From: Escherichia coli
GTDB lineage: Bacteria; Pseudomonadota; Gammaproteobacteria; Enterobacterales; Enterobacteriaceae
Assembly: GCF_050920415.1 (NCBI RefSeq)
Contig: NZ_CP169309.1
Direction: 5' to 3' (one strand)
Length of the DNA: 64,000 nt
This document shows positions 39,101 through 41,723 of this stretch, one piece after another. The position numbers were made by a program. Numbering within the stretch: the first letter of the stretch is position 1; every line of letters starts with the position of its first letter.

Positions 39101-41723
39101 CTGGCGATGTTTAAATCAGGCAAAAATGGGCCACGCATAAAAGGTAGTTATTGATATCAAAGGCCCATGGGGATCGGCTGTGGGCCTGTGTTAATTAGTG
39201 GTTATTCGCTGCCAGATCGGCTTCGCTTAGCTGGGTGGCAGCGAGCACCAGGTCACGATCAATGCCCTGTTCCAGCATGCGCAAAGCAATTTTAATGGCT
39301 TGTTCATGCATGCCCTCCTGCCAGCCAATTTGATGCCCTTCCTGCCGTAGCCGTTCAGCAATAGTCATCAATCTCTCCTTTTAATAACAGTTCGGAATAT
39401 CAGCATCAGTGAGTTGGGTTGTCGCCAGCACAATCTCACGTTCAAAGCCCTGTTCCAGCATGCGCAAGGCAATTTTAATGGCTTGTTCATGCATACCTTC
39501 TACTTTGCCTTTCTGCAAACCCTCCAATTTCCCCTCCTGCCAACCTTCAATTTTACCTTCCTGCCAGCCAATTTGGTGTCCTTCCTGCCGTAGCCGTTCA
39601 GCAATAGTCATCAATTTCTCCTTTTGTAGTGGTGAACGTTCGGCAATCTCCTCAATAAAACGGGTGAAACGGGAGGTATCGCCGCATTGCAGCAGATAAT
39701 TAAACAGCGTTTGTAGCTGGCTGTCATTAGTGAAGCCTCTAACCAAAAGCGTGGTGATCCTGTCGACCATACCGATTAAATCGCGGTCGCGAATATGCTT
39801 TTGAATCAGTTCAAGCAGAGCTATACGCCGATGTTGCATGATCTCATCGTCAGGCACGATGGTGATATCCACCAACGGAAAAGCTTCGGTGTACAACTGC
39901 CGGGCAAGTTGCGGATCGTCAAACTCATCCAGCCAGTTAAGTGAGTATGGGTAGGGCGAGGTTTCGCCGTGATAAAACAGCAACGGCACCACCAGCGGGA
40001 CTCTGTCATAGCCTTTGTCAAGGTGACGCTGCATGGCGGCGGTGGCATAGCGCATTAGCCGAAAAGCCATATTCTTTTCTGCAGAGCTTTGATGTTCAAT
40101 CACGCAGTAGATATAGCCGTTACCGTCGCTGGTTTCCACGGACCACAAAACATCCGAGTAGTAAGCGCGTAAACTTTTTTCAATAAAGCTGGTGGGTTCC
40201 AGGCGTAAGGTTTGCAGGTTGCAAAGTTTACGCAGTGGCTCCGGTAGATGTATTTCGAGAAAATCCCGCGCGGTTTCGGGCGAGAACATAAAGGTTTTAA
40301 ACACCGCATCATGCGGGGAGGAGGTTGTTGATTCGGTCATGGTTGTCCGTCACCTGATATTTATGATGACGCGACATTACGCGGATCTCAGAACAATGAC
40401 ATCTGCCAGTTTCTGCCTTTGCGAGACGTTTTCAGAAGAATTTTCAAAGCGATGCAACGCATACACTGGATGCGGAATCACGTACGCAAAAATGCCCGAT
40501 AAGCAATGCGCTTACCGGGCATCACAAGGAAGATTAAGACAGCGCCTGGGCCAGCAGCGTAATCGGGTGCTCGCAGCGAAGGCTTGTAGACATTTCAATC
40601 TGCCATTTGCAGGTTTCGCAGTCGGTGACCACCAGATCTGCGCCGCTTTCTTCTATCTGACGGAACAGTGGTGCGCCGATGGCTTGTGAGGTTGGGTAGT
40701 TCTCTTTTTTGAAACCGTAAGTTCCGGCAATACCGCAGCACTGGGAATCCAGCACCGTTAACTCAAGCCCCGGGATTTTACGCAACAGTTCCAGGGTGTA
40801 GAGTGTCCAGCCCATTTTTTCCATATGGCACGGGGTGTGATAAACCACTTTTAGTGGCAGCGTTTTCAGCGGTAACGTTTTTCCTTCGTCCAGCTTGCGC
40901 CACAGCCAGCGGGTCGCCAGTTCGATGTGATCGCGTAAGCCTCTGTTGTCGACATTCAGCACTTCCGGGTACTCGTCGCGCAGAGCAAACGTACAGGTCG
41001 AGGAGGTGGCAATCACCGGAATGCCTTTTCCCCCCACAGCTTCGCGGATCGACTCTACATTCGTGATTGCTTGTTTACGTGCTTTATCGGTAAAGCCGTT
41101 GGCGATGAGCGGCACGCCGCAGCATTTTTCTTTGCTGAGCAGTTGAACGCCGGTACCCATCGCATTGAGCACTTTAATTAAATCTTTACCTAACTGCGGA
41201 TGGTTGTAGTTAACGAAGCAGCCGTGAAAGAAAGCCACCTGGTCTTTATATTGCGCTTGCTGAGCCGCCACGCTGCGATACCAGCGACGAAACGTACCGA
41301 AGGAGTATTTCGGTAGCGTGCGGCGATGATCGATTTTTAACGCCGCATCAAGCAACTGCCGCACTGGTTTCAGCGAGGTAGCGGTGTTGACGATTGGAGC
41401 AAACGGCGTGGAAACGCTACCCATCAGGTCGGTATGACTCAACACAAAATTGCGCAGCGACGGGCGCGTGGTGTCATATTTCGCCCGCGCGCGCTGGATG
41501 ATATCGCCAATCTTCACATCGGACGGGCAGGCGACTTCGCAACGTTTGCAGTTAATACAATATTTCAGTGCCTCGTCATACAGTGCACCATCTTTTAAAC
41601 GCAGACGCTCGCCATCCGGCCCGGCTTGTTTTGGCCCCGGATAGCTGGGATTCACCCGGCTCACCGGGCAGGCGGTGGTGCAGACGGTGCACTTAATGCA
41701 GTTTTCGAAGCTGGTGTCGTTCA

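Follow-up and report, generated by a model that had tools for sequence, protein, structure and literature searches.

Genes of the rpn family in Escherichia coli contain internal starts that make small RpnS proteins, and these bind and block the toxic full-length nuclease RpnL in RpnA, RpnB, RpnC and RpnP2, the last of which is encoded on a plasmid (Zhong et al. 2023, PNAS, PMC10400941). Antagonism of a full-length nuclease by a tail-only protein has thus been demonstrated experimentally for these four systems (PMC10400941). The long first helix of RpnS makes the contact with RpnL in the characterised paralogues, and the crystal structure of RpnA-S shows a dimeric bundle of three helices (PDB 7TH0; PMC10400941). 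Here we describe the rpnE (yfaD)–ypaA locus in a 64,000-nucleotide (nt) stretch of E. coli contig NZ_CP169309.1 (assembly GCF_050920415.1), referred to below as the window. The biology of this locus has already been published (Zhong et al. 2023; Meydan et al. 2019), and our observation is a rediscovery of a described system.

The pairing of RpnL and RpnS depends on 4-residue repeats that differ among strains and set its specificity (PMC10400941). One extra repeat in either RpnC-S or RpnC-L alone abolishes inhibition, and the same extra repeat in both restores it (PMC10400941). Antiphage defence activity has been reported only for plasmid-encoded RpnP2 (PMC10400941). In K-12, ypaA has been recognized as a second copy of RpnES and named rpnE-Ss, and its product was detected as a protein in the form of YpaA-SPA (sequential peptide affinity tag); it arose from rpnE, and its loss by deletion or fusion is considered possible (Zhong et al. 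2023, PMC10400941). A commentary by Koonin makes the same points, assigns no definite role to the second copy and suggests a "decoupled antitoxin." We found nothing further on rpnE–ypaA in the later literature beyond Zhong et al. 2023 and this commentary.

Identity of the locus

We conclude that the window very probably carries E. coli rpnE (yfaD)–ypaA, a member of the Rpn family of toxins with the antitoxin encoded inside. On the minus strand, a 319-codon open reading frame (ORF) at 39381-40340 is followed after 12 nt by a 57-codon ORF, and the pair is flanked by a gene resembling glpC and a convergent aldolase gene resembling yfaU/rhmA. By megablast, the region 39150-40400 was matched in 5420 of the 5426 complete E. 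coli genomes, on the chromosome in every case and never on a plasmid; the RefSeq labels there read rpnE, then "hypothetical protein" or pseudogene, then yfaU. One complete genome was 100% identical to the window DNA and bears the RefSeq name rpnE. The same position in K-12 MG1655 is occupied by rpnE (b2244, 299 amino acids [aa]) and then ypaA (b4543), so that the gene order glpC–rpnE–ypaA–yfaU is common to both. The window protein scored 706.7 bits against the NCBIfam equivalog NF007418 (curated cutoff, 583) and 175.6 bits against TIGR01784 (cutoff, 52.1). The identification as rpnE follows from the RefSeq name on identical DNA, the K-12 synteny, the NF007418 score above its cutoff and the PF04754 match (Table 1), with equivalog score and synteny together marking the protein as the RpnE (YfaD) orthologue.

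The preliminary description of this stretch had named the larger gene rpnB. That name is wrong and was ruled out: RefSeq, the K-12 map and Kingston et al. 2017, in which RpnB is YfcI and RpnE is YfaD, all give rpnE (yfaD, b2244), and rpnB (yfcI, b2305) lies elsewhere on the chromosome. An excess of about 20 residues over the K-12 protein, also remarked on there, does hold for RpnE (319 versus 299 aa), the difference being due to a 60-nt block of five 4-residue repeats.

The assignment of the protein to the Rpn PD-(D/E)XK nucleases, also made at that stage, was borne out by the same PF04754 domain. Residues D11, D63, E82 and Q84 of the RpnA catalytic site, plus R94 and D165, were all invariant in the RpnA/RpnE alignment, and mutation of any of these six inactivates RpnA (Kingston 2017). 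Both hallmarks of the Rpn (YhgA-like) family, the domain and the catalytic residues, are thus present. Weak matches of the window RpnE to FliH and Yae1_N were rejected as low-complexity matches due to the E/G/K/Q repeat tract.

An internal gene within rpnE

Within rpnE, an in-frame Shine-Dalgarno (SD) sequence and ATG would, as far as can be read from the sequence, yield the C-terminal domain alone. Both elements were conserved in all loci examined. RpnE M244 and the surrounding 15 residues align with the proven start of RpnA-S (RpnA M244), a stretch of 11 residues being identical. For K-12 rpnE, use of this start is documented by peaks in retapamulin-assisted ribosome profiling (Ribo-RET) and by SPA-tagged RpnES in immunoblots (Meydan et al. 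2019; Zhong et al. 2023). In retapamulin profiling, each of the five rpn genes showed peaks at internal starts that lie in frame, and the internal product of rpnE was noted to resemble YpaA (Meydan et al. 2019, bioRxiv 10.1101/520783).

The C-terminal three-helix RpnS domain is recognizable by its family and by its likeness to 7TH0; precomputed domain assignments place HTH_Rpn_C (PF27070) on the 319-aa product as well as on the 57-aa product. In an AlphaFold2 (AF2) model of the 76-aa RpnE-S the repeat tract was helical, with low confidence.

ypaA is a tandem copy of the internal gene

Pairwise alignment showed that ypaA repeats, in tandem, the final 76 codons of rpnE together with the SD (AAGGAG) and ATG. 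A repeat search of the window returned two direct-repeat blocks, one of 70 nt (39313-39382 versus 39556-39625; 94%) and one of 102 nt (39216-39317 versus 39399-39500; 82%). When ypaA was compared with the 64-kb window by blastn, the tail copy was recovered with E values of 1.3e-26 and 5.5e-25; no further copy was found in the window, the other matches being no better than E = 0.03. The tandem tail duplication that had been proposed is thus real, with a similarity between the two segments that is far above chance. What that proposal had overlooked is the internal rpnE start at M244: ypaA is, on the evidence of the alignment, a copy of the gene-within-gene and not merely of a protein tail.

The only large difference between the two copies is the 60-nt block in rpnE, and their last codons also diverge. 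At the junction the sequence runs ..GAT ATT CCG AAC TGT TAT TAA, versus ..GAG ATT GCC GAA CGT TCA.. in the internal copy. Comparison with the internal copy (..ATTGCCGAACG..) suggests the loss of 1 nt, which would have shifted the frame and ended rpnE right before the duplicated SD. A tandem duplication followed by this 1-nt loss would thus explain why RpnE ends in the divergent IPNCY and why its stop codon comes just ahead of the duplicated SD. A TTG one codon upstream of the ypaA ATG, which would give 58 codons, was rejected as the start, since it lies only 3 nt from the SD and is too close to it.

The YpaA protein is 80% identical to RpnE-S and 53% identical to RpnA-S. Its gene follows directly downstream of the parent in the same orientation and has a separate SD and ATG, and its product is closest to the parental RpnS, as is characteristic of RpnSs proteins. 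In phmmer searches YpaA matched RpnA-S (7TH0) over its full length (E = 1.4e-4). Its AF2 model (predicted local distance difference test [pLDDT], 77) contains helices at residues 3-33, 38-45 and 49-54, and the best Foldseek match in the PDB was again 7TH0 (probability, 1.00; TM score, 0.71). Full-length RpnE missed 7TH0 in phmmer searches of the PDB, and shorter queries recovered it. A Pfam scan of YpaA, made with a library that did not include PF27070, gave no DUF4351 match. Designed pentatricopeptide-repeat proteins in the PDB outranked RpnA-S, with E values down to 3e-13, and were dismissed because the score sums about 10 weak helical-repeat matches with no single stretch being significant. 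Automated annotation of small helical proteins such as YpaA needs caution.

The first 35 codons shared by ypaA and the rpnE copy differ by 5 synonymous and 0 nonsynonymous changes, and later differences are conservative. This pattern argues that ypaA is maintained as a coding gene, against its RefSeq label as a pseudogene. ORF, SD and ATG were intact in every readable two-copy locus (38 loci, 15 distinct haplotypes). The exact YpaA of the window is common (858 indexed blocks) and stands behind a 319-aa RpnE in 10 of 10 cases among the matches listed.

Two labels given by the Prokaryotic Genome Annotation Pipeline (PGAP) are annotation artefacts. One is the "incomplete, missing N-terminus" pseudogene for ypaA (39195-39371), which begins right at the rpnE stop; the other is the product name "ISNCY family transposase" for RpnE.

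Table 1. Features of the rpnE–ypaA region, with positions in the window
Feature	Position	Strand	Details and basis
rpnE (yfaD) coding sequence, full-length RpnE-L	39381..40340	-	319 codons + stop; ORF, NF007418, RefSeq, synteny
Transposase_31 / PD-(D/E)XK nuclease domain	residues 8-209 = 39714..40319	-	Pfam PF04754, E = 1.2e-87
rpnE-S, gene-within-gene	39381..39611; ATG 39611-39609 (M244) to rpnE stop	-	76 codons, in frame
Shine-Dalgarno AAGGAG of rpnE-S, 6 nt upstream of ATG	39618..39623	-	Read from sequence
Dodecamer (4-residue) repeat tract, 24 residues	39495..39566	-	Tandem Repeats Finder (TRF), 24-nt period x3; alignment, strain comparison
Duplication junction, codons I-P-N-C-Y then stop	39384..39398	-	Alignments and direct sequence reading
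Shine-Dalgarno AAGGAG of ypaA, adjoining rpnE stop (39381-39383)	39375..39380	-	Sequence reading, alignment
ypaA (rpnE-Ss), stand-alone RpnS-type three-helix protein, no extra repeat	39195..39368	-	57 codons + stop; ATG at 39368, stop 39195-39197
G+C-rich hairpin, 10-bp stem, terminator-like, between convergent yfaU and ypaA stops	39161..39187		Consensus match only

Repeat numbers vary independently in the two copies

Five repeat units at 39495-39554 (60 nt, 20 residues) are present in rpnE of the window and in neither K-12 rpnE nor the adjacent ypaA. The short imperfect repeats in the gene had been noticed before, and the translated tract reads exactly as then quoted (27 residues), in agreement with TRF. 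The repeats start at residue 15-20 of RpnE-S; in RpnL–RpnS systems generally, strain-variable 4-residue repeats start 8 to 20 residues after the RpnS start. The earlier expectation that repeat number differs between strains was likewise confirmed, with 0 to 8 extra units in each copy.

To count two-copy loci, we used a 76-nt query running across the junction from the rpnE stop to the ypaA start and required full coverage in the 5426 complete E. coli genomes. The junction was present in at least 3130 of them (58%, a lower bound). The remaining genomes, for example BL21(DE3), carry a single rpnE with a ypaA-like tail (..AANNH). Site-by-site comparison of the single-copy alleles of BL21 and S22EC revealed an rpnE-type 5' side and a ypaA-type 3' side, with zero conflicting sites relative to K-12-like and AH19F006-like two-copy loci. 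These two alleles are thus clean crossover fusions of the two copies, the expected product of unequal crossover.

Haplotypes were defined by the extra repeats in rpnE and ypaA, in this order. We distinguished 15 of them: 0/1 (K-12), 0/5, 1/4, 3/1, 5/0 (window), 5/1, 5/2 (two sequence variants), 5/5, 6/4, 6/5, 6/6, 8/1, 8/4 and 8/6. The numbers were discordant in 13 of these 15, and equal numbers were seen in 0 of 19 sampled two-copy complete genomes, including 0 of 9 in a rank-spread sample. The two matched haplotypes come from a 1.3-kb metagenome scaffold and a draft genome. The match rate expected under independence is ∼12 to 15%, compared to the 2 of 15 haplotypes observed, and no significant signal of selection for or against matched repeat numbers was seen in this small sample with statistics that ignore phylogeny. 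As judged from these haplotypes, the repeat numbers of rpnE and ypaA vary uncoupled from each other, and avoidance of matching is not demonstrable.

Several individual loci deserve mention. The metagenome scaffold (1285 nt; positions 141-617) is the sole locus with identical rpnE and ypaA tracts (5/5), which would reflect conversion of one copy by the other or, alternatively, a collapse in short-read assembly. Public stand-alone YpaA sequences have lengths of 57, 61, 65, 69, 73, 77, 81 and 89 aa; the 89-aa form has lost its stop codon and carries a 28-residue read-through. A 76-aa variant has an 11-residue internal duplication (x2) in helix 1/2, unlike the 4-residue repeat changes. In E. coli UTME-10, the insertion sequence IS2 has inserted in rpnE just upstream of the internal start, and the tail with its SD remains beyond it. 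The two-gene arrangement is also present in E. fergusonii (rpnE, 319 aa; ypaA, 65 aa). Downstream of it, a truncated 115-aa product followed by a CinA-like gene replaces the full yfaU and the major facilitator superfamily transporter, and the rhamnonate cluster appears to have been deleted.

The hairpin between the convergent yfaU and ypaA stops is probably the stem of a shared bidirectional terminator, to judge from its consensus match. No RNA family was found in an Rfam scan of 38900-40700 at E <= 1.

Proposed mechanism

We propose the following mechanism. rpnE encodes RpnE-L, in which the PD-(D/E)XK nuclease domain precedes a three-helix C-terminal domain, and the internal ribosome-binding site and ATG (M244) would yield that C-terminal domain alone as RpnE-S (76 aa in the window), the putative inhibitor of the nuclease-type toxin RpnE-L. 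In the first helix of this domain lies the tract of 12-nt (4-residue) repeats, the number of which differs from strain to strain; since both are read from the same DNA, RpnE-L and RpnE-S would always be repeat-matched. ypaA is a partial duplicate of the internal gene, arranged in tandem and with the SD and ATG copied along. The 1-nt frameshift at the junction, by ending rpnE before the duplicated SD, would allow ypaA to yield a free RpnS-type protein (RpnE-Ss, 57 aa). From then on the repeat number of each copy would change on its own, and recombination between the two would give rise to fused single-copy alleles.

Anatomy, homology, strain variation, mosaic alleles and fold are taken from the present analysis, and the translation of RpnES and YpaA in K-12, the antitoxin activity of RpnS (RpnA, RpnB, RpnC and RpnP2) and the repeat-matching of RpnC are taken from the literature. 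Applied to this strain, the proposal suggests that the window YpaA (0 repeats) is probably not a productive partner of RpnE-L (5 repeats), because its first helix is 20 residues shorter, provided that the RpnC rule holds. RpnE-S would then be the matched inhibitor.

A number of observations weigh against reading rpnE as a toxin gene with its antitoxin inside. K-12 RpnE was inactive in every overexpression assay (Kingston et al. 2017), which leaves the toxicity of RpnE-L putative. A simple sigma-70 consensus scan of 39100-40560 found no promoter in or upstream of the locus and placed no counterpart of the internal promoter that differential RNA sequencing reports in K-12. No defense-system match for the locus was obtained with the PADLOC 2023 (v2) models; a "putative invertase" match was weak and irrelevant and was set aside. 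Finally, the AF2 model of RpnE-S has pLDDT values below 50 at residues 18-34, across the repeats.

The K-12 RpnE constructs of Kingston et al. 2017 also coexpressed RpnE-S. Furthermore, K-12 RpnE carries the changes L107Q and P155L, in contrast to RpnA, BL21 RpnE and the window allele, which alike keep L107 and P155. To judge from this alignment, the two substitutions might be part of the reason why K-12 RpnE was reported as inactive.

Alternative explanations for the second copy

That the locus is a mobile element, with the duplicated end as a transposon-end repeat, is extremely unlikely. Its sole support is the RefSeq product name "ISNCY family transposase," whereas in 5420 of 5426 genomes the locus stands at a single fixed chromosomal position, flanked by glpC and yfaU, and it is never on a plasmid. 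Flanking terminal inverted repeats are absent, the single inverted pair (20 nt, 80%) lying inside ypaA and glpC, and the repeat itself is direct, lies in coding sequence and takes in a start site. That Rpn genes are not transposons is also argued by Zhong et al. and by Koonin. We thus rejected the identity as an ISNCY insertion sequence or transposase, there being neither flanking inverted repeats nor variable sites. It is also improbable that ypaA is a dead remnant or pseudogene without a function of its own, even though both PGAP and the K-12 RefSeq annotation flag it as a pseudogene ("incomplete; missing N-terminus") and the gene is dispensable, having been lost as a separate gene in many lineages. 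The flag results from comparison with full-length Rpn proteins, every two-copy locus sampled, that of E. fergusonii included, has an intact ORF, SD and ATG, the first 35 codons have accumulated only synonymous changes, and the protein has been detected in K-12.

A working second antitoxin, which would bind RpnE-L in trans and damp or buffer the nuclease whatever the repeat number, is rather doubtful, though several lines of evidence favor it. YpaA closely resembles RpnE-S and is made in K-12, purifying selection acts on its first 35 codons, and ypaA follows directly behind rpnE with its own SD and is probably cotranscribed; the commentary by Koonin raises the possibility with its "decoupled antitoxin." The suggestion in the preliminary description that a separately encoded tail could antagonise the full-length protein likewise agrees, by analogy, with Rpn family biology. 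However, the repeat numbers of the two copies matched in none of the 19 sampled two-copy complete genomes and differed in 13 of the 15 haplotypes, and a mismatch by a single repeat abolished RpnC inhibition (Zhong et al. 2023). Because the ypaA repeats are usually out of step with those of rpnE, the matching rule predicts that ypaA is not a simple spare antitoxin. Furthermore, ∼42% of complete genomes lack the two-copy junction, and both dissected single-copy alleles are fused copies. The ypaA repeat number drifts independently of that of rpnE, and under the repeat-matching rule YpaA would be an orphan RpnS and not the cognate inhibitor of RpnE. We tentatively regard this as possible, though less likely than not; the second copy might then serve mainly as a homologous cassette or, alternatively, as a decoy that draws off a phage factor directed against RpnS. 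If YpaA is indeed such an orphan, unequal crossover and gene conversion with ypaA would reshuffle the repeat tract and the third helix of rpnE, and thereby provide built-in diversification of specificity of the toxin–antitoxin pair.

The principle exemplified by this locus, that of a toxin gene with its antitoxin as a gene-within-gene and with 4-residue repeats that tune their pairing, has been published, and its confirmation in the window adds nothing fundamental. What is added here is the count of two-copy junctions, the single-copy alleles that are clean crossover fusions, and the independent repeat variation in rpnE and ypaA. A practical point concerns genome annotation, in which RpnE is wrongly called an "ISNCY family transposase" and ypaA a pseudogene.

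Comparison with described systems

The most distant parallel is found in the HsdS proteins of EcoR124I and EcoR124II, where the number of a 4-residue helix repeat (TAEL) alters the specificity of a defense protein, an analogy already cited by Zhong et al. The HsdS family is nevertheless unrelated to Rpn, and its repeat sets the spacing of DNA recognition and not toxin–antitoxin pairing. Closer is rpnC–rpnC-Ss (Zhong et al. 2023), in which a tail gene was independently duplicated downstream of its parent and 4-residue repeats likewise lie in helix 1. Here, however, rpnC is a different paralogue, and the rule of pairing at equal repeat number comes from RpnC and is applied to RpnE and YpaA by analogy.

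RpnA-L/RpnA-S (7TH0) has the nuclease domain, the catalytic residues, the M244 start and the three-helix fold in common with RpnE, to which RpnA is ∼60% identical. K-12 RpnA differs in having neither a repeat tract nor a downstream second copy, and its toxicity and inhibition are known by experiment, whereas those of RpnE are putative. The closest counterpart is rpnE–ypaA of K-12. Apart from the two substitutions in the nuclease domain, K-12 RpnE has 0 extra repeats (299 aa) versus 5 in the window (319 aa), K-12 YpaA has 1 extra repeat (61 aa) versus 0 (57 aa), and RpnE ends in ..PNCH in K-12 versus ..PNCY in the window. It is nevertheless the same locus, glpC–rpnE–ypaA–yfaU, with the internal SD and ATG and a downstream duplicate that carries an SD and ATG of its own.

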